Source: an uncultured Pseudomonadota bacterium (GTDB lineage Bacteria > Pseudomonadota > Gammaproteobacteria > Burkholderiales > SG8-39). From it: a stretch of 64,000 bases of DNA. Shown piece after piece: positions 1-19,293 of the stretch. Position numbers and translations under genes: made by a program. The stretch's first letter is position 1, and every line of letters begins with the position of its first letter. The DNA is taken from positions 2,649,530-2,713,529 of the forward strand of contig CAWICY010000004.1 in assembly GCA_963834845.1 (NCBI GenBank), read 5' to 3'. Under the pieces are notes generated by a model that saw only the letters and a program-made list of their open reading frames with translations, made no database searches and was not told the DNA's origin.

Positions 1-1
1 C

Positions 2-100
2 GGATTCTCCAGCACGCACCACGGCAACGCGCTTTCCGAGGACGAGCAGTGGCGCAAGCTCGAGCTGGTGGTCGAGGTCGCTAACGAGATATGGGGGTGA
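2..100 (+). CDS. 3' end of a CDS that starts upstream of the window; product unknown
   Basis: Frame 2 reads open from the window edge: GFSSTHHGNALSEDEQWRKLELVVEVANEIWG, ending at TGA 98-100. Family not recognised. Confidence 0.35.
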   Translation, partial: GFSSTHHGNALSEDEQWRKLELVVEVANEIWG

Positions 101-468
101 GCATGTCGCAGGAACAGGAAATTCTCGCGCTCGAAGACGTGCGCTTCAAGGCGATGGTGTCGGGGGACGTCGGGCTGCTCGACGGATTGCTGCACCAGGA
201 TCTGATCTACACGCACTCGTCGGCCGTGGTCGACACGAAGGCGAGCTATCTCGAGGCGATTAGGAGCGGGAAGACGCGCTACACGTCGCAGAAGCGCTTC
301 GAGGAGCGCGTGCGACTGTGCGGCGACTGCGCGCTGGTCACCGGACGTGCCGAGATGGAAGCGGAGGTGAATGGCGTACGCAAGACACTGCGGCTGCGCT
401 ACCTCGACGTGTGGACGAAGACGCCGCAGGGCTGGAAGTTCGTCGCCTGGCAGTCGACCGGAATCTAG
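91..468 (+). CDS. NTF2-like / SnoaL-DUF4440 family small protein
   Basis: 125-aa ORF with the typical DUF4440 layout (LEDVRFKAMVSGDVGLLDGLL...W.KTPQGWKFVAWQST). Start may be ATG 103 instead of 91. Its stop overlaps the convergent gene in CTAG (465-468). Confidence 0.7.
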   Translation: MGVSMSQEQEILALEDVRFKAMVSGDVGLLDGLLHQDLIYTHSSAVVDTKASYLEAIRSGKTRYTSQKRFEERVRLCGDCALVTGRAEMEAEVNGVRKTLRLRYLDVWTKTPQGWKFVAWQSTGI

Positions 469-1637
469 GCCTGGTGGCCTTCCTCCCACGGCGGCAACAG
501 GCTTGCCAGGATCCATAGAACGACAAACGGGCCTGTCAACAGGAGGAGGGAGGTGAGCGCTCCCTCGCGCCCCAGGAATTCGGCCTGGAACGTCAACAGT
601 CCTTTCATCGTCTTCGACAACTCCTCCCCGCCAATAACCACGTTCCACCGCATCGCCAGCACGGCGATTAGCAGCAATACGGCCGCAGCGGTGAGCCAGA
701 CAACGAGCTTCCTGCCCTGCGTTCTTAAGGCGATCAAGGCCGTCAGCACCGCGAACGCCACGACAGAACCGAGAGCCTGAATCAGCAGGCCAGGCCACAG
801 GGGCCCCTTGATTAGCTGCAGGATCGTGTCGATGCCTTCCCTCCCTCGGTAGAACATCTCGACGTACTCCAATGCCTCAACCACGATTACCACCGTCAGG
901 AACGCCCACATGACGTTGGCAAGCCCCCTCAGGCAGTCGTCTTCCAGCTCGACCCGGCGCAGCTTCCAGACGACCACGTAGAGAACCACCAGCAGCGCGA
1001 CGCCCGAGACGATGGCGGAGAGCAGAAAGATGATCGGCATCAGGTCCGACGACCACCATTCGCGCGATTTCAGCGAACCGAAGATGAACCCGACATATCC
1101 GTGCAGGCCCGCGGCGGAGGGAATGCCGATGATCGCCAGCGCGCGCGCCCATTTGTGGTCATAGGCGAGGGCGGTGGGCGATACGTCGTCCGAGCCCAGC
1201 GTCAGGGCACGGTAGAACAGGCGCAGCGGACCTCGGGCGCTCTTGGAACTGGCTACGATGTCGGGCCGGAAGGCGAACCAGACCTCGAGCACGAGGATGA
1301 CCAGATAGAAGCCTGCGACGTAGCCGAAAGCTGCCATCGCCGAGGTCCAGTGCGGGGTGATCACGGCGTTGAACGCCCGCTCCGGTCGCCCGAGGTGGAA
1401 CAGCAGCGGGGTGGGCGCAAACAGCAGGAAGCACAACGCGGTCAGTAGCGCAAAGCGGGCGATCGGCCGGAACTGGCGCATGCCGAACACGTGATAGAAG
1501 CTGGAGACGATGAAGGCGCCAGCGACCAGGCCGGTGATGTACGGGTAAATAACGATCAGCTCGCCCCAGGGGATGTCGGTCTCGTTGGGATAGACATAGC
1601 CGACGTAGGGCGCGGCATGTGCAAAGAGCCCGTCCAT
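465..1637 (-). CDS. NrfD/PsrC/DsrP-type integral membrane quinone-interacting subunit
   Basis: About 390 aa and highly hydrophobic, multi-TM, resembling the polysulfide reductase NrfD family. Real start taken at MDGLFAHAAPYVGYVYPNE (ATG 1637), which overlaps the stop of the upstream FeS gene. The longer 460-aa ORF N-terminus is Arg-rich junk. Confidence 0.85.
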   Translation of the reverse strand: MDGLFAHAAPYVGYVYPNETDIPWGELIVIYPYITGLVAGAFIVSSFYHVFGMRQFRPIARFALLTALCFLLFAPTPLLFHLGRPERAFNAVITPHWTSAMAAFGYVAGFYLVILVLEVWFAFRPDIVASSKSARGPLRLFYRALTLGSDDVSPTALAYDHKWARALAIIGIPSAAGLHGYVGFIFGSLKSREWWSSDLMPIIFLLSAIVSGVALLVVLYVVVWKLRRVELEDDCLRGLANVMWAFLTVVIVVEALEYVEMFYRGREGIDTILQLIKGPLWPGLLIQALGSVVAFAVLTALIALRTQGRKLVVWLTAAAVLLLIAVLAMRWNVVIGGEELSKTMKGLLTFQAEFLGREGALTSLLLLTGPFVVLWILASLLPPWEEGHQA

Positions 1638-2479
1638 CACGACACCTCGCGGTCGATTCCGGCGTAGAAGACGTGCGGCCCGTTTCCCGTCTCGGGCTTG
1701 AGCACCTGGACCCGATTGTCGCGGACAAACTGATTGATCTCTGATGCGGCGTCGTTCAGGTCGCCGAACACCCTGCAGTGAGTCGGGCAGACTTCGACGC
1801 AGGCAGGGTTGAGCCCCTTGGTAATGCGGTGATAGCACCAGGTGCACTTATCGGCGACCCCTTTTTGGTGGTCGATGTACCTGGCGCCATAGGGGCAGGC
1901 CTGTATGCAGTACTGGCATCCGATGCAGTAGGCCTGGTCGATCAGTACCACGCCGTCCTTCGCCTTGTAGCTCGCACCGGTTGGGCACACCTGAACGCAC
2001 GGTGGGTGCTCGCACTGGTTGCAAAGCTTCGGCACGAAGTACGCCTTGGCGACTTTCGCGTTACGGTACCGGTCGTCGAAGCGGTAGTCACCGCCCGTTC
2101 CCGAGGCGGCGATATTTTGTGGATCGGACTGACTGTCGATTCTCGGGCGCGCTTCGCCCTCCAAGTAGACGTAACGCTCCACCCAGGTGCGGAAGTGGTT
2201 GGCATCCCGTACCACGTCGTTCTCGATCTTGCAGGCTTCGTCGCAACGCAGACAGCCGATGCACCGACCGATATCGATGCCGAATGCCCAACGGTGCTTG
2301 GTCCAGTCATAGCCTGGTATGGGAGGGCTGGCTGCCGACTGGGCGCCTGCAGCCGCGGCTTCACCCAGCACCGTGTGCGCCGCGACCGCGGTGCCCGCGA
2401 ATGCGATGGCACCTCCGAGAATGCGCAGAAAGTCGCGGCGTTCCTGCTGGGGCGTCGCGGGTTTCTTTTCGTCGTCCAT
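1637..2479 (-). CDS. Tat-exported 4x[4Fe-4S] ferredoxin-like subunit (NrfC/PsrB/DsrO/HybA type)
   Basis: Starts MDDEKKPATPQQERRDFLRILGG (twin-arginine signal). Four Cys clusters: CIGCLRCDEAC, CNQCEHPPCVQVCP, CIGCQYCIQACP, CTWC...CVEVCP. The rest of the 571-aa ORF upstream is out-of-gene readthrough. Confidence 0.9.
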   Translation of the reverse strand: MDDEKKPATPQQERRDFLRILGGAIAFAGTAVAAHTVLGEAAAAGAQSAASPPIPGYDWTKHRWAFGIDIGRCIGCLRCDEACKIENDVVRDANHFRTWVERYVYLEGEARPRIDSQSDPQNIAASGTGGDYRFDDRYRNAKVAKAYFVPKLCNQCEHPPCVQVCPTGASYKAKDGVVLIDQAYCIGCQYCIQACPYGARYIDHQKGVADKCTWCYHRITKGLNPACVEVCPTHCRVFGDLNDAASEINQFVRDNRVQVLKPETGNGPHVFYAGIDREVS

Positions 2480-2517
2480 TTTCAATGCTCCTTGCCGCAC
2501 TTGCGCCGCGGTGCGTC

Positions 2518-3555
2518 TCACCTGCAACCAGCGTTGGCGAAATACTCCCCCGCGATCGCGGCATCCGCGTCGCTCAGTCCCTTCGCGATACCCGCCATGA
2601 TGGCGTTCTTGCGACCACCGCCCTTGTAAGCCCGCAATGCGTTGAGCAGGTAGTCCTTGGACTGCCCGGCGAGATTGGGCCACAGCGGGTTGACGCTGAC
2701 CCCGCTCGCGCCATGGCAGGCGGCACAGTTGGACGCCGTCGTTTGACCGGCGCTGGCCGCTTGCTTCCCGGCATCCGCGGAGCGCTTGCAGCTCAGGCCG
2801 GCGAAATATGCCGCGAGATCTTCGACATCTGAGTCGCTCAGGCCCTTCGCCAACGGGCCCATCATGGGGTTGTCGCGCGCCCCGGTCCGGTATCCCTTGA
2901 GCGCGTCGACGAGATACGCCTCCTTTTGTCCCGCGAGGTTGGGCCCGGGGAGATTCACGCTGTTGCCCTGCGCGCCATGGCACGCGGCGCAGGTCGCCGC
3001 CTTCGCTTTTCCCGCCGCAACGTCGCCCGGACGCGCATTCGGCGCGGCCGCGCCGATCAGGAGCTTGGGCGAATGCGGATTGTGGCAAGTCATGCATTGT
3101 TGCGTCCCCGCGTGGGTGGCGACCACGATCTGGCGTTGCGCCACGGGCCTCGCCGCGATCTTTTCGTGACAACGCGTGCACAGCTCCGTCGTGTCGGTCG
3201 GCACCATCAGCTTCACGTTGTCCGGGTGATCCGGGCCGGTCGCCGAACGCCGGAACATGCCCCGCATGTCCCGGCGGCCGGCCGCGCCATGGCAGACCTC
3301 GCATTTGACGACCTTGCCGATGGCCGCGCTGTTGTGCACGCCCCGCGACCATTCAGCGTAGCGCTCGGCATGGCATTGCTGGCACGACTGCGGGTTCTTG
3401 TACTTGGGCTTGTCCGAGGCGATTTCCGCTACCGAGTCACCCCGGTAGTGGCCGTAACGGTAAAACGAGGCGGGAGTGAAAAGAATCTTGGCCGCGTAGG
3501 CAGCCGTTCCAAGGGCGCCCACGAGCAGGATGAGTCGAACGATGTGTTTCGGCAT
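2518..3555 (-). CDS. Membrane-anchored hexahaem c-type cytochrome (N-terminal tetrahaem module fused to two c4-like domains)
   Basis: N-terminal TM helix ([22 protein letters not shown]). Six CXXCH motifs: CQQCH, CEVCH, CTRCH, CMTCH, CAACH, CAACH. The last two lie in repeated c4-type domains (GPNLAGQ / WPNLAGQ, with Met-containing NPMMGP / NAIMAGI). Confidence 0.9.
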
Positions 3556-3597
3556 GCTGCTCAGATGATGGCGCAGGCGCCAATTACCCGGAGGACC

Positions 3598-4203
3598 TCA
3601 CTTAGCCGGAGCGACGCTTTGATTGAACATATAGACGATGGCGCTGCGGATCTCCGGGTCGGTGAGATCGGCCATGCCGCCGCGCGGAGGCATCCCTCCA
3701 TGCCCCTTGATCGCGGAGCGAACCACCGCGTCAAGCCCTTGCTTCGCTCGCGGTATCCATGCCGAGCGATCGCCGATCCTGGGCGCTCCGTCGACCCCCG
3801 TCTCGTGGCACTTGAAGCATTGCGTGCGCACGATCTGCTCGCCGCTGCGGTCGGCGGCAGGCGGCGCGGCCTTGTCGATGGGTTCGGCCCAATGGCCCCC
3901 CGACTGATTGACCATGTAGGTAATCGCGAGCTCGAGTTCGAAATCGGTGACGCCCGGACTGCCACCATGCGCAGGCATTTGCCGGATGCCCTTGATCGCA
4001 TGCTGAGTGAGGCTGGTAAGCCCCTGCGAGGCGCGAGGTTTCCACGCGCTTTGATCGCCGATTTTCGGCGCGCCGTTTGCGCCCGTCGCGTGACACGCGG
4101 TGCAGACCGCATCGACCACTTCCTTCCCATTGCGCCCGGTGGCCTCGGCATCGGGTTGCACGGCGATCTGGGCCGCGAGAGCAAGCATGGCGCCGATTGC
4201 CAT
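3598..4203 (-). CDS. Dihaem cytochrome c5-like periplasmic cytochrome
   Basis: Two repeats of CxxCH-x3-GAPKIGD/GAPRIGD-x-SAW-x-PRA...MPxxGG (CTACH, CFKCH). Signal-like start at MAIGAMLALAAQIAV (ATG 4203); the ORF extends to 4266. Confidence 0.85.
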   Translation of the reverse strand: MAIGAMLALAAQIAVQPDAEATGRNGKEVVDAVCTACHATGANGAPKIGDQSAWKPRASQGLTSLTQHAIKGIRQMPAHGGSPGVTDFELELAITYMVNQSGGHWAEPIDKAAPPAADRSGEQIVRTQCFKCHETGVDGAPRIGDRSAWIPRAKQGLDAVVRSAIKGHGGMPPRGGMADLTDPEIRSAIVYMFNQSVAPAK

Positions 4204-4543
4204 CTTCGTCGCGGGCCGGCATGACGTCACCTGCCTCGCTGTCTCTGTTTCGCCTCCCCTCGACATTGCAATCCTCTCCGAATCCGGTTACGTAGCATCG
4301 CCAGCATCTACGCGGCTAATAGAAGACGCGATTTCGGAAGAACTTGTTTTGATGCCAGTCAATGGCACACCGAGTATTCGGTTCTTGTGTCAGAGAATTG
4401 CTCTCATTTGCTGGCTGGGCCGCGGGGCCAGGATCGACGGCTGCGACAGCGACCGTCGCCAGACGGAAATTGCGCAATAACGGGCACCCGCACGATTCCG
4501 AGGGCGGATACTTTCCCTATGAAGTGTTTGCTGCAAAAGAATA

Positions 4544-4564
4544 TGACGTCAGTCTGACGTCAGT
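4544..4564. promoter_or_regulatory. Tandem direct repeat TGACGTCAGT-c-TGACGTCAGT (each copy contains the palindrome TGACGTCA) in the divergent cytochrome intergenic region
   Basis: Read directly at 4544-4553 and 4555-4564, about 100 bp upstream of the Cyc2-like start. It is followed by an AT-rich stretch with TTGATctagCTTAA (4576-4589). Function is inferred only. Confidence 0.35.
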
Positions 4565-4662
4565 AATTATTTATCTTGATCTAGCTTAAAGCAGCGCTGG
4601 TTGCCGGCCTGCAGACTCGCCTCGGGGCACGTGGGATTCAATCCATTCCAAGGGAGATCGTT

Positions 4663-6018
4663 ATGCGGCAAGGCAAGCTGACAACTTTCATCATGGCGCT
4701 CGCGGTGGCAAGCGGTGGCCTGCTGCTCCTGCCGGGAAGCGCCCAGGCGGTGCCAAGCTTCGCCAGGCAGACGGGCATGGCCTGCGAAGCCTGCCACACG
4801 GTTTTTCCGGAGCTGACGCCTTTCGGCCGGCGCTTCAAGCTGAACGCGTACACCATCGACAACCTGCCGCAGGTGAGCGGCATGACACCGAACAAGGAGC
4901 AGACGCTGCTGCTGAACCAGCTGCCGCCGCTGTCATTCATGTTTCAGGCCTCGGTGACCAATACCAAAACAGCCGTCCCGGACTCGGCAGTGGTAGGCGA
5001 GAACGCGCAGAACGGCCAGGTGCAGTTCCCGCAGCAGGCGAGCCTGTTCTACGCCGGAAGGATCGCACCGAACCTAGGGGCGTTCGTACAGATGACCTAC
5101 GATGGCACTGAGGGCCAATTCGGCTGGGACAACACGGACATCCGCTACGCGAGCAATGCGAGCGACAAGTTCCTGTGGGGCGTGAGCTTCAACAACAACC
5201 CGACGGTGCAGGACGTGTGGAACAGCACGACCGCATGGCAGGTGCCGTTCGACCAGCGTAGCGCCACCGCGCCGACGCCCGGCGCGGTCACCATGATCGA
5301 CGGCGGCCTGGCCGATGCGGGCGTGGCCGGGTTAAGTATCTATGGTTACTGGAACAACTCGATCTACGCTGAGCTCGGCGTGTACAAGTCGGCGCCCGCT
5401 GCGGCGCAGATCGACAGCACCAGCACGAACGTCGTCAAAGGGGTCGCCCCCTACTGGCGCCTCGCCTACGAGCGCCAATGGCAGCGGAACTCGTGGATGT
5501 TCGGCGCCTACGGCGTGAACGCCAAGCTGTACCCGGGTGACGGTGCTGCGCTCTCAGGCCCGGCCAACAAGTTCAGCGACTGGGCGCTGGATACGCAATA
5601 CCAGTATATCGGCGACGATCACCTGTTCTCGGTCATGGCGACCTACATCGACGAGAAGCAGAACTGGGACGCGGGCGGCTCGGCCAATCCTTCCGATACG
5701 CTGAAGACAACCAGGATCGGCGGGCATTACTTCTACCAGCGGAAATACGGCGTGGCGCTGGGGTACTTTTCGACCACCGGCAGCGAGGATGCCGGGCTGT
5801 ACCAGCAGGTCGATCCGGTGACCGGCTTCGCCAATAACAAGCCCAACAGCAACGGCTGGGTTGGCGAGCTCGATTGGGTGCCCTACCAGAACACCAAGAT
5901 TGCGCTGCAGTACACGGTGTACAACAAGTTCAACGGCGGCGGCAGCAACTACGACGGCAACAACCGGAGCGCCTCCGACAACAACACCCTCTACCTCCTC
6001 GGCTGGCTCAACTTCTAG
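4663..6018 (+). CDS. Cyc2-like fused monoheme cytochrome c-porin (outer-membrane beta-barrel with N-terminal CXXCH)
   Basis: RBS AAGGGAG. Sec signal ...LLPGSAQA|VPSF. A single CXXCH (CEACH) sits in PSFARQTGMACEACHTVFPELTPFGRRFKLN. The remaining ~400 aa is Gly/Tyr/Asn-rich with an alternating pattern and ends YLLGWLNF (OMP C-terminal Phe signature). Confidence 0.75.
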   Translation: MRQGKLTTFIMALAVASGGLLLLPGSAQAVPSFARQTGMACEACHTVFPELTPFGRRFKLNAYTIDNLPQVSGMTPNKEQTLLLNQLPPLSFMFQASVTNTKTAVPDSAVVGENAQNGQVQFPQQASLFYAGRIAPNLGAFVQMTYDGTEGQFGWDNTDIRYASNASDKFLWGVSFNNNPTVQDVWNSTTAWQVPFDQRSATAPTPGAVTMIDGGLADAGVAGLSIYGYWNNSIYAELGVYKSAPAAAQIDSTSTNVVKGVAPYWRLAYERQWQRNSWMFGAYGVNAKLYPGDGAALSGPANKFSDWALDTQYQYIGDDHLFSVMATYIDEKQNWDAGGSANPSDTLKTTRIGGHYFYQRKYGVALGYFSTTGSEDAGLYQQVDPVTGFANNKPNSNGWVGELDWVPYQNTKIALQYTVYNKFNGGGSNYDGNNRSASDNNTLYLLGWLNF

Positions 6019-6028
6019 GCGAACGACG

Positions 6029-6637
6029 ATGAAAACGATCATTGCACTTGCAACAGGCGCCCTGCTCGCGGCCGGCATGACAGCCGCGGTGGCGCAGAGC
6101 GATCAGGATGCGTCCGCGCTCGCCAAGGGCGTGTGCTCCGCCTGCCACGGACCGGAGGGCCACAGCGTATCGCCGGTATTTCCCCACCTCGCCGGGCAGC
6201 AGGCGGCCTACATCACCCTGCAGCTCGACGCATTCCGCGGTCACCTGCGCGGCGACCCGAATGCCCAGGCGTACATGTGGGGCATGGCCTCGCAGCTGAG
6301 TGACGCCACGATCAAGGCCCTGTCGGATTACTATGCTGCGCAGAAACCGGCACCGGGCAGGGCGGGCGACCCGAAGCTCATGGCGGAAGGGGAGAAGATC
6401 TACGCCCAAGGGATTCCGGGGAAGAAGGTGCAGGCCTGTGCGACCTGCCATGGCCCGAACGCCGAGGGGGCGACCGCGTTCCCGCGGCTCGCCGGGCAGC
6501 ACGTCGAGTACCTGATCGCGCAACTCGAGGGCTTCAAGTCGGGGACCCGCGCGAACGCGCCGATCATGTTGGGGGTGGTGCGTGGCATGACCTCGGAGCA
6601 GCTGAAAGCGGCGGCGACCTACGCCGCCTCGAGATAG
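6029..6637 (+). CDS. Dihaem cytochrome c4 (Cyc1-like periplasmic cytochrome)
   Basis: MKTIIALATGALLAAGMTAAVA signal. Two haem motifs (CSACH, CATCH), each followed by FPxLAGQ...Y...QL..F, as in c4 family cytochromes. Confidence 0.9.
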   Translation: MKTIIALATGALLAAGMTAAVAQSDQDASALAKGVCSACHGPEGHSVSPVFPHLAGQQAAYITLQLDAFRGHLRGDPNAQAYMWGMASQLSDATIKALSDYYAAQKPAPGRAGDPKLMAEGEKIYAQGIPGKKVQACATCHGPNAEGATAFPRLAGQHVEYLIAQLEGFKSGTRANAPIMLGVVRGMTSEQLKAAATYAASR

Positions 6638-6735
6638 CGGCACACTTGCAACTCGCGGGGCGGAGGCGCAATCTCCCCGGGGCTCGTTCCCGTGCGCTTC
6701 CTCCTCGTCCCTTTTTCAGATCGGATAGCGAAGAA

Positions 6736-7281
6736 ATGCGGATAGCACTCCCGCTACTCGTTTCCCTTGCGCTCGCCGGCGCCCCTGCGGCGCGGGCGGC
6801 GGAGCCGGACAATGCGACGCTGCAGCAGGAAGTGAACGCGCTGAAAGCGGTGGTGCATGACCTGCAGCAGCGCATGAACGTGCTGGAAGGGCGATCGCCG
6901 GCGGCGGCGCAGACCGCGCCAGTGCCGCAGGCCGCGCCCGCGTCTCAGGCCGCGCCCGCAGTACCTCAGGCCGCGCCAATGCCACAGGCCGCGCCCGCAG
7001 CGCCTCAGCCGCAGGCCGCGCCGGTCGCGGCGGCTCCGCCCGCGGCGAGCGCCGGCTACGTGAGCCCGGAGGCGGCACTCAGGGCGAACTGGTCGAAGGT
7101 GAACGCCAAGATGGATCAGGATGATGTAACGCGGCTTCTCGGCGCGCCGTCGAAGAAGTTCATGCTCGACGGCAGGAACGTCTGGTATTACTACTATCCG
7201 GGAACCGGCGGCGGCTCGGTGTTCTTCACTGACGTCGGGCGCGTAACGAGCAGCCAGTCGCCTTTCGGCTGGAGCTGGTAG
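6736..7281 (+). CDS. Secreted protein: coiled-coil, Pro/Ala/Gln repeat, C-terminal SmpA/OmlA (BamE-like) domain
   Basis: Signal MRIALPLLVSLALAGAPAARA|AEP. Heptad-like LQQEVNALKAVVHDLQQRMNVLE. PQAAPA repeats. C-terminus is DDVTRLLGAPSKKF...VWYYYYPG....VFF. Confidence 0.6.
   Translation: MRIALPLLVSLALAGAPAARAAEPDNATLQQEVNALKAVVHDLQQRMNVLEGRSPAAAQTAPVPQAAPASQAAPAVPQAAPMPQAAPAAPQPQAAPVAAAPPAASAGYVSPEAALRANWSKVNAKMDQDDVTRLLGAPSKKFMLDGRNVWYYYYPGTGGGSVFFTDVGRVTSSQSPFGWSW
6919..7026 (+). repeat. Imperfect in-frame tandem repeat (five copies of CAGGCCGCGCC with 18-27 nt period) encoding (V/A)PQAAPA
   Basis: CAGGCCGCGCC read at 6928, 6946, 6967, 6985 and 7012. It is a coding low-complexity repeat inside CDS 6736-7281. 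Confidence 0.8.
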
Positions 7282-7290
7282 CGGCGGCGC

Positions 7291-8220
7291 TCAGGTGCGC
7301 GCGCCGAGCAGCGGGTTGAGCCCGCTGCGCGTGACGCGCCCGTTGAGTTCGCGCCCGAGCGCGCGCTCACACAATTCGGCGGTCGCGAGCAGGCCGTCGA
7401 GGTCGATGCCGGTGGCCACGCCCATCGACTCGAGCAGGTTCACCAGGTCCTCGGTGCACACGTTGCCGGTGTAGCCGGCGCCGTACTTCACTTTCGCCGG
7501 GTGCCCGCCGACCCCGCCGAACGACGCATCGAAGTGGCGCACGCCGGCTTCGAGCGCGGCGACTGCGTTGACGAGGCCGGTGCCGCGCGTGTCGTGGAAG
7601 TGGGCGATCGGGGTCAATCCCGCGATGTGCGCCAGCCGCCCGCACATGTCCTTCACCGAGCGCGGCGTGGCCATCCCCGTGGTGTCGCCGAGCGCAACGT
7701 GATCGACGCCGAGCGCGGCGAAGCGCGCTGCGTCCTCGGCGACGACGCCGGCATCGACCTGGCCCTCGAACGGGCAGCCGAAGGCCACCGACACGGTACC
7801 GACCAGGCGGAAGTGCCCGCGCGCCGCGCGCGCCATCCGCTCGACGTTGGCCCACTGCTCGGCGCGCGTGCGGTTCAGGTTCTTCCGTGTGTGCGATTCG
7901 GTCGCCGAGACCAGCAGGCTGATCTCGTTCGCGCCGTGGCCGGCCTCGAGGTCGGCGAGCGCGCGCGCGACCGCGCGCGGGTTGGCGCAGGTCGCCTTGT
8001 ACCAGGTCCCCGGGCGGCGCGAGAGCGAGGCGAGCAGCTCGCTCGCGTCGGCGAACTGCGGCACGACCTCGGGATTGGAGTAGGAGGTCGCCTCGACGCG
8101 CGCGAAGCCGAGCGCGGCGAAGCGCTCGACGAGCGCGCGCTTGACGGCGGTCGGCACGAACTGCGGCTCGTGCTGCAGACCGTCGCGCGCGAAGCATTCG
8201 CAGATGACGACTGCTGCCAT
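7291..8220 (-). CDS. Hydroxymethylglutaryl-CoA lyase family (HMGL-like) protein
   Basis: 309 aa. N-terminus ICECFARDGLQHE, ...EATSYSNPEVVPQ..., ...HFHDTRGTGLVNAVAALEAGV..FDASFGGVGG.P: canonical HMGL-like TIM-barrel motifs. Confidence 0.9.
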   Translation of the reverse strand: MAAVVICECFARDGLQHEPQFVPTAVKRALVERFAALGFARVEATSYSNPEVVPQFADASELLASLSRRPGTWYKATCANPRAVARALADLEAGHGANEISLLVSATESHTRKNLNRTRAEQWANVERMARAARGHFRLVGTVSVAFGCPFEGQVDAGVVAEDAARFAALGVDHVALGDTTGMATPRSVKDMCGRLAHIAGLTPIAHFHDTRGTGLVNAVAALEAGVRHFDASFGGVGGHPAKVKYGAGYTGNVCTEDLVNLLESMGVATGIDLDGLLATAELCERALGRELNGRVTRSGLNPLLGART

Positions 8221-8236
8221 GGGGTATAGTTGATAG

Positions 8237-8266
8237 TGTCAACGAGTCGCGCTAAGCTTGTCAACG
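8237..8266. promoter_or_regulatory. Direct repeat TGTCAACG (8237-8244 and 8259-8266, 22-bp spacing) in the 53-bp divergent HMGL / pcaH intergenic region
   Basis: Read directly. The position between two divergent starts suggests an operator. No regulator can be assigned from sequence alone. Confidence 0.3.
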
Positions 8267-8273
8267 GATCCGG

Positions 8274-9017
8274 TTGCGGAGGCACCAAGTGGCAGCGAAC
8301 CCCATCGACCTGCGGCAATTCCCCTACGTCGCCGGCGCGCCCGACGAGCCGACGCAGCCGCTGCGCGTGGTGCCCGGCTACAGGGAAACGGCCTGGCGCA
8401 ACCCGGCGCAGCCGCTCGTCAAGCGGCCGGCGACGCTCTCCGAGCTTACCGGTCCGCTCGAGCCGGCGCGGCGCCTGAGCCTGCTCGGCCACGACCTCGC
8501 CGGTCACGGAGAGCAGCGCGCCATCGGCCAGCTCATGCACCTGCGTGTGCGCGTGCTGGACGAGGACGGCAGCCCGGTGAGCGGCGCGCTGGTGGAGATC
8601 TGGCACGCGAACGGGGCCGGCCGCTACATCCATCCGAACGACGACGATCACGCGCCGGTCGATCCGAACTTCTACGGCGCGGCGCGCCTGCTGACCGACG
8701 AAAGCGGCGCCTTCGAGCTGCGCACCATCAAGCCCGGCGCCTATCCGGTGCCCAACTCGGGCGGCTGGTGGCGGCCGCCGCACATCCACTTCTCGCTGTT
8801 CGGCAAGATCTGGCTGTCGCGCCTGGTGACGCAGATGTATTTCCCGGACGACCCGCTGAACCCGCAGGACCGCATCCTCAATGCGCCGCCGAGCGCCGAG
8901 GCGCGCGCGCGGCTCATCGCGCGCATGCTGCCGCCGAGCGAGGGGCCGGCGGACGCGCTCGTCTTCGAGCACCAGATCGTGCTGCGCGGCCGCCGGGCCA
9001 CGCCGGCGCAGCCCTGA
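8274..9017 (+). CDS. pcaH: Protocatechuate 3,4-dioxygenase beta subunit-like intradiol dioxygenase
   Basis: LSELTGP..., VRVLDEDGSPVSGALVEIWHANGAGRYIHP.D, RTIKPGAYP......WRPPHIHFSLF, TQMYFPDDPLN: PcaH signature. Start (TTG 8274 vs GTG 8289) is uncertain. Confidence 0.88.
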   Translation: MRRHQVAANPIDLRQFPYVAGAPDEPTQPLRVVPGYRETAWRNPAQPLVKRPATLSELTGPLEPARRLSLLGHDLAGHGEQRAIGQLMHLRVRVLDEDGSPVSGALVEIWHANGAGRYIHPNDDDHAPVDPNFYGAARLLTDESGAFELRTIKPGAYPVPNSGGWWRPPHIHFSLFGKIWLSRLVTQMYFPDDPLNPQDRILNAPPSAEARARLIARMLPPSEGPADALVFEHQIVLRGRRATPAQP

Positions 9018-9030
9018 AAGGGGAGCCGCA

Positions 9031-9588
9031 ATGACTCTTGTCCCCACCGCATCGGCGACCACCGGGCCGTTCTTCCCGCCGCGCTACATCGACGCCGGTT
9101 GCAACGACCTCACGAGGTTCGAGGGCCGCGCGGCGCGTGGCGAGCCGATCGAGATCCACGGCCGCGTGCTGCAGGAGGACGGCAGCCCGCTTAACAACCT
9201 GATCGTCGAGATCTGGCAGACCGACGCCGGCGGCGTGTTCCGTCATCCCGGCGATCCGCGCATGCAGGAAGCAGACCCGGATTTCTTCGGCTGGGGACGC
9301 ACCACCACCGACCCCGACGGCGTGTATCGTTTTCGCAGCGTGCTGCCGGGCGCGCGCCCGCCGCGCGCGCGGCACGTCAACTTCCAGCTCATGTTTTCGG
9401 GGCTGATGCGCATGCTGCCGACGGTGATGTATTTCGAGGGCCAGGCGGACAACGACGCCGATCCGGTGCTCGCCGCGGTGCCCGCGGCGCGCCGCGCGCT
9501 GCTGGTGGCGAAGCGCGAGGCCGCCGGCCGCTATCGCTTCGACATCCGCCTGCGCGGCGAGGGCGAAACGCCGTTCTTCGATCTCTGA
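9031..9588 (+). CDS. pcaG: Protocatechuate 3,4-dioxygenase alpha subunit-like
   Basis: MTLVPTASATTGPFFPP..., IEIHGRVLQEDGSPLNNLIVEIWQTDAGGVFRHP, HVNFQLMFSGLMRMLPTVMYFEG. Lies 13 nt after pcaH. Confidence 0.88.
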   Translation: MTLVPTASATTGPFFPPRYIDAGCNDLTRFEGRAARGEPIEIHGRVLQEDGSPLNNLIVEIWQTDAGGVFRHPGDPRMQEADPDFFGWGRTTTDPDGVYRFRSVLPGARPPRARHVNFQLMFSGLMRMLPTVMYFEGQADNDADPVLAAVPAARRALLVAKREAAGRYRFDIRLRGEGETPFFDL

Positions 9589-9594
9589 GCCGCC

Positions 9595-10071
9595 TTGACC
9601 ACCATCCGCGAGCTGCTCTCCTTTCGCCTGCACGTGCTGGCGAACCTGCTGTCGCGCGGCGCCGAGATGCGCTACCGGCGCGAGTTCGGCGTCAGCCTGT
9701 GGGAGTGGCGCACCGTGGCGCTGCTCGGCGGCGCCGCGGGGCCGCTGTCGTTGAACGAATTGGCGCTTGCGGCGGGCATCGACAAGAGCCAGATGAGCCG
9801 CGTGGTGTCGGGGCTCGCCGGGCGCGGCATCGTGCTGCGCCGGGCCGACGCCGAGGACGCGCGCGGCGTGCGGCTCACGCTCACGCCGGCGGGCCGCAAG
9901 CTGTACGCCGGGCTGATGCGCGCCGCGAGCGAGCGCAACGAGGCGTTCCTCGCCGCGCTCGCGCCGCGCGAGCGCGAGGGCCTCGAGGCGGCGCTCGGCA
10001 AGCTCGCCGCGCGCGCGAAGACGTTCATCCAGCGCGAGCGCGCGCTGGGGGCGAAGCCGAGGCGCAGGTGA
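9595..10071 (+). CDS. MarR family transcriptional regulator
   Basis: 158 aa with a winged-helix pattern (WRTVALLG....LSLNELALAAGIDKSQMSRVVSGLAGRGIVLRR.D.EDARGVRLTLTPAGRKL). TTG start 6 nt after pcaG. Confidence 0.85.
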   Translation: MTTIRELLSFRLHVLANLLSRGAEMRYRREFGVSLWEWRTVALLGGAAGPLSLNELALAAGIDKSQMSRVVSGLAGRGIVLRRADAEDARGVRLTLTPAGRKLYAGLMRAASERNEAFLAALAPREREGLEAALGKLAARAKTFIQRERALGAKPRRR

Positions 10072-11012
10072 AGACGCGCATCACCGAGCTGCTCGGCATC
10101 GAGCACCCGATCATCCAGGCCGCGATGAGCTGGGCGTCGTCCAACGCGGCGCTGGTGGTCGCGGTGTCGAACGCCGGCGGCATGGGCGTCCTCGGGGCGG
10201 GGCCGATGCGGCCCGACGACTTCCGCAAGTGCCTCGCGGACATCAAGGCGGGCACGGCGAAGCCGTTCGGCGTCAACATCCCGTTGAACGGCGCGCGCGC
10301 CGCCGAGCTGCTCGACATCGCGTTCGAGGCGCGCATCCCGGTGATGGTCGCCTCGCAGGGCGGGCCGCGCGGAGCGCTGGCGCGCTTCCGCGCGATCGGC
10401 ACGAAATGGCTGCACGTGGTCGCGTCGCTCGAGCACGCGCTGAAGGCGGAAGCCGCGGGCGTCGACGCGCTGGTGGTCGACGGCGCCGAGGCCGGCGGCC
10501 ATCCGCCGCCCTCAGAGGTGACGACGCTGGTGCTGGTGCGGCGCGTGGTGAAATCGACGCGGCTGCCGGTGGTGGCGAGCGGCGGGGTGGCCGACGGCGC
10601 GGGCGTCGCCGCGCTGCTCGCGCTCGGCGCCGAGGCGGTGCAGCTCGGCACGCGCTTCATCGCCACGCCCGAGGCGAGCGTGCACCCGGCCTACAAGCAG
10701 GCAGTGCTCGATGCCGGCGTCGACGGCAGCACGCTGCTTGCGCGCGGCGCGCTGCCGATCCGCCAGCTCAAGAACGCGTTCTCGGCGAAATACGAGGCCG
10801 CCGAGCGCGCGGGCGCGTCGCCCGAGGAACTCGCCGGGATCTTCAAGGCCTCCAGCCTGAAGCAGGCGGCGCTCGAGGGCGACGTGGCCTGGGGCAAGCT
10901 CGAGGCCGGGCAGAGCGCCGGCCTGGTGGAGGACATCGTGCCGGCGGGCGAGCTGGTAAAGCGCCTGGCCGCCGAACTGGAGCAAGCGCGGCGCCGCGTG
11001 GCGTCGCTATGA
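10068..11012 (+). CDS. Nitronate monooxygenase / FabK-like FMN oxidoreductase (NMO family)
   Basis: GTG start overlaps the MarR stop (GTGA). TELLGIEHPIIQAAMSWASS..LVVAVSNAGGMGVLG, ...VVDGAEAGGH..., ASGGVADGAGVAALLALGAEAVQLGTRF. Confidence 0.88.
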   Translation: MKTRITELLGIEHPIIQAAMSWASSNAALVVAVSNAGGMGVLGAGPMRPDDFRKCLADIKAGTAKPFGVNIPLNGARAAELLDIAFEARIPVMVASQGGPRGALARFRAIGTKWLHVVASLEHALKAEAAGVDALVVDGAEAGGHPPPSEVTTLVLVRRVVKSTRLPVVASGGVADGAGVAALLALGAEAVQLGTRFIATPEASVHPAYKQAVLDAGVDGSTLLARGALPIRQLKNAFSAKYEAAERAGASPEELAGIFKASSLKQAALEGDVAWGKLEAGQSAGLVEDIVPAGELVKRLAAELEQARRRVASL

Positions 11013-12220
11013 CGAGAAAGGTGAAGGACATGACGATCGACGAACGCATTGCACGCATGCACGACGAACTGACGCAATGGCGGCGCGACATCCACGCGCA
11101 CCCCGAGCTCGGCTTCGAGGAGACGCGCACCTCCGGGCTCGTGGCCGAAAGGCTCGCGTCGTTCGGCGTCGAGGTGCACCGCGGCGTCGGCAAGACCGGC
11201 GTGGTCGGCGTGCTGCGCGCGGGCAAGGGCGGCGATGCGAAGGACGGCACGCGTGCCGTGGGCTTGCGCGCCGACATGGACGCGCTGCCGATCCAGGAGG
11301 CGAACGGCTTCGCGTACCGCTCGCGCCACGACGGCAAGATGCACGCCTGCGGCCACGACGGCCACACCACCATGCTGCTCGGTGCGGCCAGGTACCTCGC
11401 CGAGACGCGGGCCTTCGACGGCACGGTCAATTTCATCTTCCAGCCGGCCGAGGAGGGCATCGGCGGCGCCAGGGCGATGATCGACGACGGCCTGTTCGAG
11501 CGCTTCCCCTGCGAGGCGGTGTTCGGCATGCACAACCGCCCCAGTCTGCCGGTCGGCTCGTTCGCGGTGCGCGCCGGGCCGATGATGGCGGGCGGCGGCT
11601 TCTTCGACATCCGCATCACCGGCAAGGGCGCGCACGGCGCGCGCCCGGAGGCCGGCATCGACCCGGTGATCGTCGCGGCGCACATCGCCACCGCGCTGCA
11701 GACCATCGTGTCGCGCAACGTGCCGCCGGTGGAGACCGCAGTGGTATCGGTGACGAAAATCCAGGGCGGCGATGCCTACAACGTGATCCCGCAGAGCGCG
11801 CTGCTCGCCGGCACGGTGCGCGCGTTCTCGCGCCCGGTGATGGACCAGATCAGCGCCGCGGTGCAGCGCATCGCCAAGGGCGTGGCCGAGGGCTTCGGCG
11901 CCAGGGCCGAGGTCGACGTGCGCTGGAATTTCGCGCCGACCATCAACGATGCAACAGAGGCCGAATTCGCGGCCCGGATCTGCGCCGAGCTGGTGGGCAA
12001 GGAGCGCGTCGAGCGCGACCCGCCGCTCATCATGGCCTCGGAGGATTTCTCCTTCATGCTGGAGAAGGTGCCGGGCTGCTACCTCAACATCGGCAACGGC
12101 GAAGGCGAGTCCGGCTGCGAAGTGCACAACCCGGGCTACGACTTCAACGACCGCGCGCTGCCGCTCGGCGTGAGCTTCTTCGCGCGGCTGGTCGAGACGC
12201 GGCTGGGGAAGGGCGCGTGA
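11009..12220 (+). CDS. M20/M25/M40 family amidohydrolase (hippurate hydrolase / N-acyl-amino acid amidohydrolase type)
   Basis: ATGA overlap with the upstream gene. WRRDIHAHPELGFEE.RTS..V...L, RADMDALPI.E, HACGHDGHTTMLLGAA, FQPAEEG.GGA..M. Confidence 0.9.
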   Translation: MTRKVKDMTIDERIARMHDELTQWRRDIHAHPELGFEETRTSGLVAERLASFGVEVHRGVGKTGVVGVLRAGKGGDAKDGTRAVGLRADMDALPIQEANGFAYRSRHDGKMHACGHDGHTTMLLGAARYLAETRAFDGTVNFIFQPAEEGIGGARAMIDDGLFERFPCEAVFGMHNRPSLPVGSFAVRAGPMMAGGGFFDIRITGKGAHGARPEAGIDPVIVAAHIATALQTIVSRNVPPVETAVVSVTKIQGGDAYNVIPQSALLAGTVRAFSRPVMDQISAAVQRIAKGVAEGFGARAEVDVRWNFAPTINDATEAEFAARICAELVGKERVERDPPLIMASEDFSFMLEKVPGCYLNIGNGEGESGCEVHNPGYDFNDRALPLGVSFFARLVETRLGKGA

Positions 12221-12952
12221 GCGAGGTGCTGCTAAGCGAGGACCGCGGCCGGGTGCGCATCCTCACCATGAACCGGCCCGGGAAGCTGAACGCGCTTAAT
12301 ACCGCGCTCACCGAGGCGCTTCTTGCCGGGTTGGAGCAGGCCGAGCACGACGACGCGGTGTCGGTGGTGATCCTGACCGGCGCCGGGCGCGCCTTCTGCG
12401 CCGGCGCCGACGTCGGCGAATTCAGGGAGCTGACGCCGGACCAGGCGGCGCGCGTCGAGCGCCGCGCCGAGCTCACCATGCGCTCGCACCTCGTCTTTTC
12501 GCGGATGCGCAAGCCCGTGATCGCCGCGCTGCGCGGCGCGGCGATGGGCGGCGGCGCGGGGCTCGCGCTGGCTGCCGACCTGGTGGTCGCCTCGGAGAAC
12601 GCGAAGATCGGCTACCCGGAGATCAAGCACGGCATCCTGCCGGCGATCGTCATCGCCAACCTCACGCGCCAGGTGGGCAGGAAGGCCGCCTTCGAGCTGG
12701 TGAGCACCGGCGAGCCGCTCGATGCGCGGCGCGCCTTCGAGCTCGGCGCGGTCAACCGCGTGGTGCCCGACGACAAGCTGCTCGAGGCGGCGCTCGCGCT
12801 CGCCGAAACGCTCGCCGCCTTCAAGCCCGAAGCGCTGTACGCCATCAAGCGATCTGTTCCACCAGGTTGCCGACCTGCCGCTCGCCGCCGGGCTGGAGGA
12901 GGGCCGCAAGGCGAACATCGCCATGCGGGCGATTTACGCCCGGGGACGCTGA
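12217..12952 (+). pseudogene. Enoyl-CoA hydratase/isomerase (crotonase) interrupted by one +1 frameshift near 12850-12853
   Basis: The crotonase N-terminus (RILTMNRPGKLNALN...LTGAGRAFCAGADV...GAAMGGGAGLALAADL) runs in frame 1 to AIKR. The expected C-terminus (LFHQVADLPLAAGLEEGRKANIAMRA...*) continues in frame 2 (ORF 12722-12952). The apparent extra nucleotide is in cga-t-ctg. Confidence 0.75.
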
Positions 12953-12990
12953 GCCCGGCTGCCCCGAGAACCGGCAATCGCTGCGCCGCC

Positions 12991-13887
12991 ATGGGTGTCT
13001 CGCTCGCGCTGCTGTCGATGCTGTGCTTCGCGTCGAACATCATCATCTCGCGCTACGCGATGGCGCAGATGAAGATCGAGCCCGGCTTTCTCGTGGTGCT
13101 GCTGGTGAACATCCTGTTCGCGGCCCTTGTGTTCGCGATCGAGCTCGCGCTGCGCTCGACGCCGTTCGCGATCCAGTGGGGCGAGGCGGGTCTGTTCGCG
13201 CTCGCCGGCATCGTCGGCACCTACCTGGGCAGGCGTCTGCTGTTCGACACGGTGCGCCTTCTCGGGCCGGCGCGCGCGAGCGTGTTCCATTCTTCGGCCC
13301 CGGTGTTCACGCTGATCGCCGCATGGCTGCTGGTGGGCGAGCGGCTGGGCGGTTACGAGCTCGCCCTGATGGCGCTGGTGATGGCGGGCCTGTGGACCAC
13401 GCAGCCGGCGAGCGGCGGGGCCGCCGATGTCCATCGCCCGAGCGGCGACGCGCTGCGCCGCGGAATGCTGATGGGGATCCTCACGGTCGCCGGCTTCGGC
13501 GTCGGCAACGCGATCCGCGGCCTCGCGATGCGCAGCTGGAGCGAGGCGGTGTTCGGCGCGCTCGCCGGCTCGATGGCGGCGTTCGCTTGCCAGCTCGCCA
13601 CCACGCGCAACCACGCCAAGGTGTTCGGCGAGCTGCGCGCGGCGAGCCGCGCGGGGATCGCGCTCTATGCGGCGAGCGGCATCGCCACGGTGTGCGGCTC
13701 GATCTTCATCGTGTCGGCGATGCGCTACATGGAGATCGCGCTCGCGGCGCTCGTCACGCACACCACGCCGCTGGCGATCTTCCCGGTGAGCGTGATCGTG
13801 TACCGCAACCGCGAGGGCCTGTCGCCGCGCACCGTGCTCGGCGCCGCGATGGTGCTGGCCGGCATCGTGCTGCTGGCCGTGCGTTGA
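12991..13887 (+). CDS. EamA/DMT superfamily permease
   Basis: About 298 aa with ~10 hydrophobic segments. MGVSLALLSMLCFASNIIISRYA..., duplicated EamA-like halves. Confidence 0.75.
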   Translation: MGVSLALLSMLCFASNIIISRYAMAQMKIEPGFLVVLLVNILFAALVFAIELALRSTPFAIQWGEAGLFALAGIVGTYLGRRLLFDTVRLLGPARASVFHSSAPVFTLIAAWLLVGERLGGYELALMALVMAGLWTTQPASGGAADVHRPSGDALRRGMLMGILTVAGFGVGNAIRGLAMRSWSEAVFGALAGSMAAFACQLATTRNHAKVFGELRAASRAGIALYAASGIATVCGSIFIVSAMRYMEIALAALVTHTTPLAIFPVSVIVYRNREGLSPRTVLGAAMVLAGIVLLAVR

Positions 13888-13923
13888 CAGCGCCATGGAG
13901 GTAGTTGACAATGGCAACTATCT

Positions 13924-19283: not shown

Positions 19284-19293
19284 GCGGCCGATG

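Follow-up and report, generated by a model that had tools for sequence, protein, structure and literature searches.

A hexahaem cytochrome, a ferredoxin-like protein and an NrfD-type subunit as a probable link between the quinone pool and periplasmic cytochromes c in an uncultured Burkholderiales bacterium

For the passage of electrons from Fe(II) outside the cell into the quinone pool, the default assignment is usually the cytochrome bc1 complex or alternative complex III (ACIII), either of them operating in reverse. A 64-kb stretch of DNA from an uncultured Burkholderiales bacterium (contig CAWICY010000004.1; "the window" below means this whole stretch) raises the question of which inner-membrane complex connects quinone with periplasmic cytochromes in this host. 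Near one end of the window, a minus-strand operon encodes a dihaem cytochrome, a hexahaem cytochrome, a ferredoxin-like iron-sulfur (FeS) protein and an NrfD-family membrane protein, and a Cyc2-like gene is transcribed divergently from it. From the sequences and the structural models, we consider it very likely that the last three operon genes, here called the trio, encode an oxidoreductase between the quinone pool and periplasmic cytochrome c that follows an ACIII-like design. The features of the locus, in window coordinates, are as follows.

465-1637, minus strand: NrfD-family integral membrane subunit with the presumed quinone/quinol site (390 aa; Pfam PF03916, E=4.7e-39)
1637-2479, minus strand: ferredoxin-like FeS subunit exported by the twin-arginine translocation (Tat) system, 4x[4Fe-4S] expected (280 aa; Fer4_11, E=1.8e-27)
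2518-3555, minus strand: hexahaem cytochrome c with an N-terminal membrane helix (345 aa, six CXXCH; Pfam Cytochrome_C7, Paired_CXXCH and Cytochrom_C)
3598-4266, minus strand: dihaem class-I cytochrome, c5/c551-like, encoded first in the operon (two PF13442 domains, E=2.3e-27)
4267-4662, no strand: AT-richer control region that separates the divergent c5 and Cyc2-like operons (GC 53%)
4349-4362, no strand: predicted FNR/FixK/Anr-type box, TTGATGCCAGTCAA; on the operon strand, TTGACTGGCATCAA
4663-6018, plus strand: Cyc2-type fused monohaem cytochrome-porin, a possible outer-membrane partner (451 aa; motif and 16-strand model)
6026-6637, plus strand: periplasmic dihaem cytochrome c4, Cyc1-like (best match in the Protein Data Bank, PDB: 1h1o, E=8.3e-39)
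6736-7281, plus strand: small secreted Pro/Ala-rich protein, third gene of the Cyc2-c4 unit (signal-like N-terminus; weak BamE match, E=0.003)

An open reading frame (ORF) listing with inspection of start codons, combined with Pfam and NCBIfam profile scans of the window proteins, bears out the original prediction of four co-oriented minus-strand genes for a c5 cytochrome, a hexahaem cytochrome with a transmembrane (TM) anchor, a Tat-exported four-cluster ferredoxin and an NrfD protein. The overlap that it reported between the FeS stop and the NrfD start is real and amounts to one base, shared by TGA and ATG in TGATG (-1 spacing), an arrangement that recurs in other loci; the remaining intergenic gaps on the minus strand measure 38-42 nt and hold no extra ORFs. 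Because a GGAGAGG ribosome-binding site precedes the ATG at 4266, the c5-like gene more likely starts there than at the alternative start at 4203. The choice of start sets the length of the divergent spacer at 396-459 bp; the 460 bp given for it earlier does not stand as a length, but the region is indeed AT-richer, with 53-55% GC compared to 64% in the flanking genes. A recount of CXXCH motifs over the six genes again gave 11 (0+0+6+2+1+2 for NrfD, FeS, hexahaem, c5, Cyc2-like and c4, respectively).

To place the trio in a wider context, we drew on a scan with one genome per species, which yielded 167 relatives; the best 80 of these 167 were analysed, giving 81 trio loci together with the window. 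The order hexahaem, FeS, NrfD is kept in every locus with enough sequence (about 80). The absence of a catalytic subunit, another claim of the original prediction, extends well beyond this host: no molybdopterin or other catalytic gene adjoins the cytochrome cluster in the window, and no molybdoenzyme gene adjoins the trio in the about 80 related loci.

The predicted architecture of the three proteins is that of an electron-transfer chain ending in a membrane subunit. The hexahaem protein consists of an N-terminal hydrophobic helix (residues 4-22), a tetrahaem c3/c7-like domain and a complete fused cytochrome c4, with residues 177-339 matching the c4 structure 6q2u (E=1.2e-22). Because the family alignment contains no conserved signal-peptidase site at the N-terminus, the helix is probably a membrane anchor. 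Haem ligands were compared in 20 close homologues and in 27 homologues after the addition of Gallionella-type sequences at 42-44% identity. In both sets, which reach down to 42% identity, the six CXXCH motifs are invariant, and so are H74, H110, H148, H161, M232 and M320, so that each haem has a candidate sixth ligand, four haems being bis-His and two His/Met. Given that all six haems keep an invariant sixth ligand, an open catalytic haem is not expected. Two further cysteines, C256 and C344, located where the two halves of the c4 domain end, are invariant in 27/27 homologues and could form a disulfide or serve another role.

The FeS subunit carries the twin-arginine motif RRDFL (in ERRDFLRILGG) and 16 cysteines in four groups (CxxCxxCxxxC, CxxCx4CxxxCP, CxxCxxCxxxCP and CxxCx11CxxxCP), and its best PDB match is PsrB (2vpw_B, E=9.5e-49). 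For the NrfD subunit, with about 9-10 hydrophobic helices, sequence and profile searches against the PDB gave no match even at E<=1. We therefore note the comparison of AlphaFold2 (AF2) models by Foldseek, which was made for this protein and for the Cyc2-like protein, the NrfD alignment being built from database proteins. The NrfD model (pLDDT 79.8, pTM 0.83) is closest to ActC of ACIII (8k9e_C, 6btm_C, 6f0k_C and 6lod_C; TMq 0.73-0.77 at 17-19% identity), which it fits better than ActF (TMq 0.54-0.60) or PsrC (0.39). H81, S99 and R330 are invariant among the NrfD subunits of the trio family and are candidate equivalents of the ActC quinone and proton-path residues His139, Ser164, Asp169, Asp253 and Arg395. 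In NrfD-like subunits other than ActF, the quinone site lies on the P-side, beside the FeS subunit, and putative ion pathways have been described (Calisto & Pereira 2021, PMC8076601). The c5-like protein, the likely soluble partner of the trio, matches c551 (2zon_G, E=6e-20) and cytochrome c5 (8smr_L and 1cc5) in the PDB with its C-terminal domain. Homologues of these proteins bear automatically assigned names such as 'cytochrome c553', 'NrfD/PsrC family molybdoenzyme membrane anchor subunit', 'polysulfide reductase' and 'Ni/Fe-hydrogenase subunit HybB-like'; none of these fits the gene context, and for the trio family they are misleading.

Does the trio belong to a complex that is already characterised? 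Like ACIII, it has a multihaem cytochrome with a TM anchor, an FeS subunit exported by Tat and a quinol-binding subunit of the NrfD type, and the terminal high-potential haem domain of the hexahaem protein would be the analogue of ActE. However, the molybdopterin-like domain of ActB1 is missing (the FeS protein has 280 aa, with Fer4 domains only), a single NrfD gene stands where ACIII has ActC and ActF, and there are no genes for ActD or for the monohaem ActE. Furthermore, the trio combines a tetrahaem domain with a fused c4 in place of the pentahaem ActA, and its 16 cysteines predict 4x[4Fe-4S], whereas ACIII has a [3Fe-4S] cluster beside the quinone site (PMC8076601). NetBCD, a divergent NrfBCD, acts with the dihaem shuttle PdsA as the inner-membrane quinol dehydrogenase of the Aeromonas MtrCAB pathway (PMC8805035). 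NetBCD and NrfBCD, like the trio, join NrfD to a 4x[4Fe-4S] protein and a multihaem cytochrome and lack a fused catalytic subunit, and the NetBCD-like placement beside an outer-membrane conduit is found in trio loci as well, as a functional resemblance only; a PdsA model is weakly matched by the c4 domain and by the c4 protein of the window. Their cytochrome architecture differs from that of the trio (NetBCD being compared by its description), and the window proteins score 140.9 bits with the NrfC model (TIGR03149, cut-off 377.6) and 34.9 bits with the NrfD model (TIGR03148, cut-off 347.6). By sequence, NrfBCD/NetBCD thus appears as an analogue of the trio, not an orthologue.

Precedents for electrons passing into the quinone pool are provided by NhcABCD and QrcABCD of Desulfovibrio, which are cytochrome c3:menaquinone oxidoreductases (PMC8076601; PMC6303296) with periplasmic multihaem, FeS and 10-TM-type NrfD subunits, as in the trio. 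Unlike the route considered here for the trio, they take electrons from low-potential donors (TpIc3) in a downhill, electrogenic reaction. Moreover, Qrc has the Mo-like QrcB and a [3Fe-4S] cluster, neither Nhc nor Qrc has a c4 domain, both are found in Desulfobacterota and not in aerobic or denitrifying Proteobacteria, and the QrcC model scored 93 bits against a cut-off of 400. DsrJOP resembles the trio in its TM-anchored multihaem cytochrome, its Tat-exported FeS protein DsrO and its NrfD-type DsrP. Nevertheless, DsrO scored 191.7 bits (cut-off 200) and DsrP, the best NCBIfam match of the NrfD subunit, 56.4 bits (cut-off 350); DsrMKJOP has a trihaem DsrJ where the trio has a hexahaem cytochrome with a c4 domain, and no DsrMK lies nearby. 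As for TtrBC/PsrBC, TtrB scored 202 bits against a cut-off of 416, and no A subunit occurs in any locus. The original prediction named grouping within a characterised complex, one with a catalytic partner always encoded elsewhere, as a finding that would undo it; the models for DsrO/DsrP, NrfC/NrfD, TtrB, HmcB/C and QrcC all stayed below their curated cut-offs. Because these cut-offs are missed and the defining parts of ACIII are absent, we hold with considerable confidence that the trio differs from characterised ACIII, NrfBCD, DsrJOP and Ttr/Psr in the features that define them.

A closely similar complex has nonetheless been described. Genes 2878408594-2878408596 of Ferrigenium straubiae KS encode SU1-SU3 of a 'novel membrane-bound redox complex' (bioRxiv 10.64898/2026.01.22.701106, section 6.5.5, May 2026), with adjacent hexahaem, FeS and NrfD genes, four bis-His and two His/Met haems, a PsrB-like subunit with four [4Fe-4S] clusters and a membrane subunit with an ACIII/Psr-like quinone pocket, all as in the trio. 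This likeness rests on the published description, the complex being known from models and transcript levels only; the trios compared by sequence are those of Gallionella and Gallionellales metagenome-assembled genomes (MAGs), at 42-63% identity. The authors of the preprint liken their complex to ACIII and speculate on nitrite reduction (10.64898/2026.01.22.701106). It is the only literature description of the trio that we found; Zhong & Shi 2018 and the Gallionellaceae pangenome paper make no mention of it. The idea of a distinct cytochrome:quinone module therefore holds in that the trio is self-contained and fails the cut-offs of known families, but not as a novelty, because the architecture had already been reported, and this partial prior description lowers the novelty of the trio. 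To the F. straubiae plan the window adds a c5 gene within the operon and a divergent Cyc2-c4 pair. The preprint includes neither an FNR-type box, nor the spread in soil Alpha-, Beta- and Gammaproteobacteria, nor the MtrAB/CbcL/Cyc2 neighbourhood; the family-wide box and the extracellular-electron-transfer neighbourhood, to which we now turn, are new findings.

The trio is widespread, and the finding is more general than the window alone shows. The hexahaem family comprises more than 120 full-length cluster representatives with 59-100% identity; the fusion family is compact, since clustering at 50% leaves only about 7 full-length representatives. The best 80 relatives are MAGs throughout, from soil, peat, permafrost and groundwater, and include Alphaproteobacteria (Bradyrhizobium, Xanthobacteraceae, Hyphomicrobiales and Acetobacteraceae), Betaproteobacteria (Burkholderiales and Sterolibacterium) and Gammaproteobacteria (Steroidobacteraceae). 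NrfD homologues at 62-68% identity occur in MAGs of Gallionella, Gallionellales and Acidiferrobacteraceae, where the trio is likewise present; the Gallionella and Gallionellales trios are 42-44% (hexahaem), 60% (FeS) and 62-63% (NrfD) identical to that of the window.

Neighbouring genes in the relatives were called by the rule GC3>GC1>GC2, clustered by BLASTP and assigned through Pfam matches of cluster representatives, and the counts hinge both on the heuristic gene calls and on the single-linkage clustering, in which all c4-containing cytochromes fell into one cluster. Among the 49 large loci (>=18 kb), an MtrA-like decahaem cytochrome and/or an MtrB_PioB porin (Pfam E=2.8e-151) occurs within 10 kb of the trio in 27/49, a CbcL-like protein with nine c-haems and a cytochrome b561 domain in 18/49, a tetrahaem cytochrome made of two c4 units in 30/49 and an Aq_1264_TM-type 263-aa single-haem membrane protein in 31/49. 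Some betaproteobacterial MAGs have co-directional arrays of MtrA, MtrB, a gap, hexahaem, FeS, NrfD, tetrahaem, monohaem, Aq_1264_TM and c5 genes. In 16/80 loci, all of Betaproteobacteria type, a homologue of the c5-like protein is encoded directly ahead of the trio or within the array that contains it. The accessory cytochromes of these islands are mostly of the His/Met c4 type, which would suit a high-potential uptake chain better than the reduction of Fe(III) oxides. All of MtrA, MtrB, CbcL-like, Aq_1264_TM and PSCyt1 homologues are absent from the 64-kb window.

Two of these neighbours deserve separate description. The Aq_1264_TM-type protein (about 263 aa, several TM helices, one CXXCH) adjoins the trio in 44/80 loci, usually just upstream (for example, 2716-3507 in locus L001 and 5537-6280 in L088), and could represent a fourth subunit or a partner confined to certain lineages; the label comes from precomputed Pfam annotation, and a separate Pfam scan of representatives gave no match. 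The proteins with nine haems and a cytochrome b561-type domain (a 684-aa gene in L008, 4116-6146 in L024 and 4139-6265 in L052) resemble CbcL of Geobacter, and islands that carry them would contain two different candidate quinone-coupling modules.

If the trio is a respiratory module, under which conditions is it made? The consensus of the FNR/FixK/Anr regulators is TTGAT-N4-ATCAA, and such boxes are typical of microoxic respiration regulons. When the spacer of the window is aligned with that of the closest related locus, L004, at 83-89% identity to the window, a conserved TTGA(C/T)TGGCATCAA that fits this consensus emerges. In the window it lies at 4349-4362, 89 nt upstream from the c5 start codon at 4266, and at the aligned position L004 has a perfect TTGATTGGCATCAA. 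Although the box is the only match with <=1 mismatch in 64 kb, it is not significant in the window alone (1 found, 0.24 expected; 21% of shuffles give >=1), and what gives it weight is that it is conserved from locus to locus. In 50/62 related loci, the 350 nt that precede the operon's first gene contain a box with <=1 mismatch, compared to 89/466 (19%) other upstream regions of the same loci (Fisher p=9e-22), and a perfect box also precedes the Gallionellales trio in L088. Boxes of this type stand upstream of CbcL-like genes (13/20), of MtrA-like genes (11/24) and of Cyc2-like genes (15/74), 13 of the latter 15 being among the closest relatives of the window's protein. Because the box is conserved upstream of the operon, expression of the trio very probably takes place when oxygen is limiting or absent.

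Other potential signals were sought in the same region. A sigma-70 promoter scan of 1-7400 returned no sites. The palindrome TGACGTCAGTCTGACGTCA at 4544-4562, made up of two TGACGTCA octamers that are themselves palindromic, precedes the Cyc2-like start by about 100 nt and is partly conserved in L004, as is GGATTGAATCC, closer to the Cyc2-like start codon; both may be operators for some regulator. In the Burkholderiales relatives that are next closest to the window after L004, represented by L021 (6707-8772) and L006, a histidine kinase/OmpR-type response regulator pair with a c5-like copy on either side comes just before the trio. A search there for FNR-type boxes came up empty, which suggests alternative regulation in that lineage.

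The divergent gene invites us to ask if the trio is tied to outer-membrane electron uptake. The 451-aa protein has a signal peptide and a single CXXCH, CEACH being preceded by AVPSFARQT and followed, four residues on, by PEL (AVPSFARQTGMACEACHTVFPEL). These features agree with the Cyc2 criteria of Keffer et al. 2021 (PMC8406198): a signal peptide, a single CXXCH, AxPxFAR[Q/K][T/Y] upstream, PxL downstream and >=365 aa. No Pfam or NCBIfam model matched the protein; its AF2 model, of moderate confidence (pLDDT 58, pTM 0.65), has 16 long beta strands between residues 90 and 449 and matches the 16-stranded porins OmpT, OmpC, OmpF and OprO. By motif, length and modelled barrel, we assign the gene to the Cyc2-type fused cytochrome-porins. 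The adjoining c4 protein matches, after 1h1o, the c4 entries 8uf3, 1etp and 6q2u; we take 1h1o to be the c4 of Acidithiobacillus ferrooxidans (Cyc1/CYC41). A c4 gene lies directly downstream of the Cyc2-like gene in essentially all of the 82 related Cyc2-like loci with room for it. In the closer ones, it is followed by homologues of the small secreted protein (e.g. 12166-12762 in L084 and 12023-12583 in L085), a protein that could have an accessory role in the Cyc2 module. What stays together around Cyc2 is thus Cyc2-c4(-small protein).

In trio loci, by comparison, a Cyc2-like gene is rare: it stands beside the trio in 3/81, namely the window, L004 (Cyc2-like proteins 78% identical) and L042 (37%). 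L004 shares the divergent back-to-back layout of the window, and L042 has a single tight co-directional array, Cyc2-c4-X-c5-hexahaem-FeS-NrfD, with gaps <=50 nt and 37-59% identity to the window. Conversely, none of the 82 Cyc2-like loci contains FeS, NrfD or true hexahaem genes, and the trio is likewise absent from the 20 of them with >=5 kb on both sides (0/20) and from the 25 with >=5 kb upstream (0/25). The original prediction proposed to check whether this gene order co-occurs with Cyc2 homologues in other genomes, and these counts speak against any regular adjacency. Because only 3/81 trio loci and none of the 82 Cyc2-like loci join both, the Cyc2-c4 pair and the trio appear, from their distribution, to be distinct modules that became joined on a few occasions; one genome, that of F. 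straubiae, does have all of Cyc2, MtoAB and the trio (bioRxiv 10.64898/2026.01.22.701106). In L084 (8385-9794 and 12836-14032) the Cyc2-like gene is flanked by a divergent gene for the oxygen-independent HemN, with which it shares two FNR-type boxes, and by NnrS, hemerythrin and universal stress protein genes, a context that suggests low-oxygen or NO-responsive expression of this Cyc2 subclade.

How would the parts work together? A three-subunit inner-membrane complex formed by the trio would link the quinone pool to periplasmic high-potential c-type cytochromes. Periplasmic c5 and c4 proteins would dock at the fused c4 domain with its two His/Met haems, and electrons would then pass through the four bis-His haems and the four [4Fe-4S] clusters of the Tat-exported subunit to a periplasm-side quinone site in the ActC-like NrfD, where redox chemistry would be coupled to proton movement. 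The complex may well be reversible. With outer-membrane uptake by a Cyc2/Cyc1-type Fe(II)-oxidation pair, electrons would run through c4/c5 into the quinone pool at the expense of the proton-motive force, and the quinol so made would feed NADH synthesis and quinol-dependent anaerobic reductases such as NarGHI, an enzyme that needs quinol.

The direction of flow is the point on which the explanations part. Our preferred reading, held tentatively and at somewhat less than an even chance, takes the trio in this host to be a compact coupling site, ACIII-like and regulated by low oxygen, where electrons pass from c-type cytochromes into quinone. The trio is present and strongly induced in the nitrate-reducing, Fe(II)-dependent autotroph F. 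straubiae (10.64898/2026.01.22.701106). We favour the inward route because homologous trios occur in Gallionella and Gallionellales MAGs, because this is induction where Fe(II) is the sole electron donor and NarGHI must be fed with quinol, and because the trio sits in uptake-type, c4-rich islands, with Cyc2/Cyc1 in the window. Several points weigh against it. The sequence does not set the direction of flow; 13/49 large loci have no MtrA/MtrB, CbcL-like, tetrahaem or Aq_1264_TM neighbours; and the adjacency to Cyc2-like genes is as rare as described above. The characterised relatives with high-potential partners (ACIII, NetBCD and NrfBCD) oxidise quinol, and at textbook potentials the transfer to ubiquinone from a haem of the c4 type is about 150-200 mV uphill and would need the proton-motive force. 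We know of no NrfD-type complex shown to carry out cytochrome c to quinone transfer driven by that force. Control by FNR would fit a quinol-oxidising bypass to a cbb3 oxidase or to denitrification enzymes equally well. This last possibility belongs to the nearest competitor, which we rank slightly behind the inward role and judge to have perhaps a one-in-three prospect: the trio would be a minimal ACIII running in the opposite direction, a quinol:cytochrome c4/c5 oxidoreductase induced at low oxygen that bypasses or supplements bc1 and feeds a cbb3 oxidase, periplasmic denitrification enzymes or outward transfer via MtrAB-type conduits, the Cyc2 adjacency being incidental or reflecting only a shared c4/c5 carrier pool. 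The ActC-like fold, the parallel to ActA+ActE / ActB2 / ActC, the terminal c4 domain with its His/Met haems and the FNR/FixK box all agree with such a complex, as do the c4 and c5 proteins present in the cbb3 oxidase entry 8smr/8snh, the CbcL-like and MtrAB-like genes of the trio islands, the downhill course of electrons from ubiquinol to c4 and the service of the NetBCD quinol dehydrogenase to the Aeromonas Mtr pathway (cited in PMC8805035). It is harder to reconcile with the obligately Fe(II)-dependent Gallionellaceae, which get quinol only by reverse flow; moreover, no terminal oxidase or nir/nor genes adjoin the trio in the loci examined, and high-potential haems of the c4 type would be poor donors to Fe(III) oxides.

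In another explanation, that of the original prediction, the whole locus (465-6637) would have evolved and would work as one conduit, from Cyc2 through c4/c5 and the trio to quinone. The back-to-back genes share a control region with the only FNR-type box of the window, the same arrangement occurs in L004, L042 has the seven genes in one co-directional array, and FNR-type boxes precede 13 Cyc2-like genes of the window's subclade. However, the counts in both directions (3/81; 0/20 and 0/25), the conservation of the Cyc2-c4 pair and of the trio each on its own, and the more frequent company of MtrAB-type genes, or of nothing, beside the trio make such a unit improbable: the conduit is weakly supported as a fixed system, and what still speaks for it is the repeated placement of MtrA/MtrB beside the trio, the L042 array and the FNR-type boxes that the trio and the window's Cyc2 subclade both tend to have. 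We regard as very improbable that the hexahaem cytochrome is itself catalytic and the trio a quinol-dependent terminal reductase, for nitrite in the speculation of the Ferrigenium preprint, although the induction under nitrate-reducing conditions and a ProFunc-based suggestion, highly speculative per its authors, point that way (10.64898/2026.01.22.701106) and the FNR-type box is consistent with it. The distal His/Met ligands are invariant on all six haems, no five-coordinate or Lys/Cys-ligated haem is evident, the domains match electron-transfer cytochromes (c7/c3-like and c4), and the association with MtrAB/Cyc2 islands would be left unexplained; we rejected the idea on the invariance of the distal ligands. 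An equally remote explanation is a sulfur module of the DsrJOP, Ttr or Psr kind with its catalytic partner encoded elsewhere. DsrO falls just under its cut-off, TtrB reaches 202 bits, DsrP is the best NCBIfam match of NrfD and PsrB the best PDB sequence match of the FeS protein, but every score is below the curated cut-off (by a wide interval for DsrP, 56 against 350, and TtrB, 202 against 416), no dsrMK, dsrAB, sox, ttrA or psrA occurs in the window or in the about 80 related loci, and the cytochrome is a tetrahaem-c4 fusion, not a trihaem DsrJ. The HMM cut-offs and the genomic context led us to reject this candidate too.

The surroundings of the locus differ in composition. A DUF4440 gene (91-468) converges on NrfD, and the same neighbour is present in L004; the window holds only 464 bases beyond NrfD. 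On the other side, the small secreted protein is followed by an HMG-CoA-lyase-like gene. The cytochrome cluster (91-7281) has 64% GC and a GC3 of 0.76-0.87, compared to 71% and 0.91-0.98 in the adjoining genes of aromatic and fatty-acid catabolism (7291-21468), a contrast that may mark a horizontally acquired island with its left border beyond the window. A second patch of lower GC3 (0.75-0.87), at 21655-30427, encodes a beta-propeller protein, a PQQ-dependent dehydrogenase (23477-25285), a dihaem cytochrome c (25301-25939), a TonB-dependent receptor (25911-28220), a cytochrome b561 (28266-28622), a monohaem cytochrome c (28651-28971) and a GSDH-like protein (29033-30427). It could be another periplasmic dehydrogenase/cytochrome system that shares a pool of c-type cytochromes with the trio.

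Taken together, these results would place the trio at a step of general importance, because entry of Fe(II) electrons into quinone is needed for NADH synthesis and for the quinol-dependent nitrate reductase, and the trio is a compact and widespread candidate for it. In its broadest form, which we consider doubtful, the trio family would be the missing inner-membrane entry for extracellular electrons, an FNR-switched cytochrome c:quinone oxidoreductase driven by the proton-motive force that serves as a modular partner of Cyc2 and of MtoAB/PioAB-type conduits and supports quinol-dependent nitrate reduction and NADH synthesis in Gallionellaceae and in uncultured Alpha-, Beta- and Gammaproteobacteria of soil, peat and groundwater. 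Should the trio instead prove to be a quinol oxidiser, it would still be a minimal ACIII, useful for learning which parts of ACIII are essential. The reported induction in a nitrate-reducing Fe(II) oxidiser, the conserved low-oxygen box and the repeated placement beside MtrAB, CbcL and Cyc2 genes make the question approachable by experiment. For many uncultured lineages of Bradyrhizobium, Xanthobacteraceae, Burkholderiales and Steroidobacteraceae in soil and peat, the analysis reveals predicted FNR-controlled islands of extracellular electron transfer.

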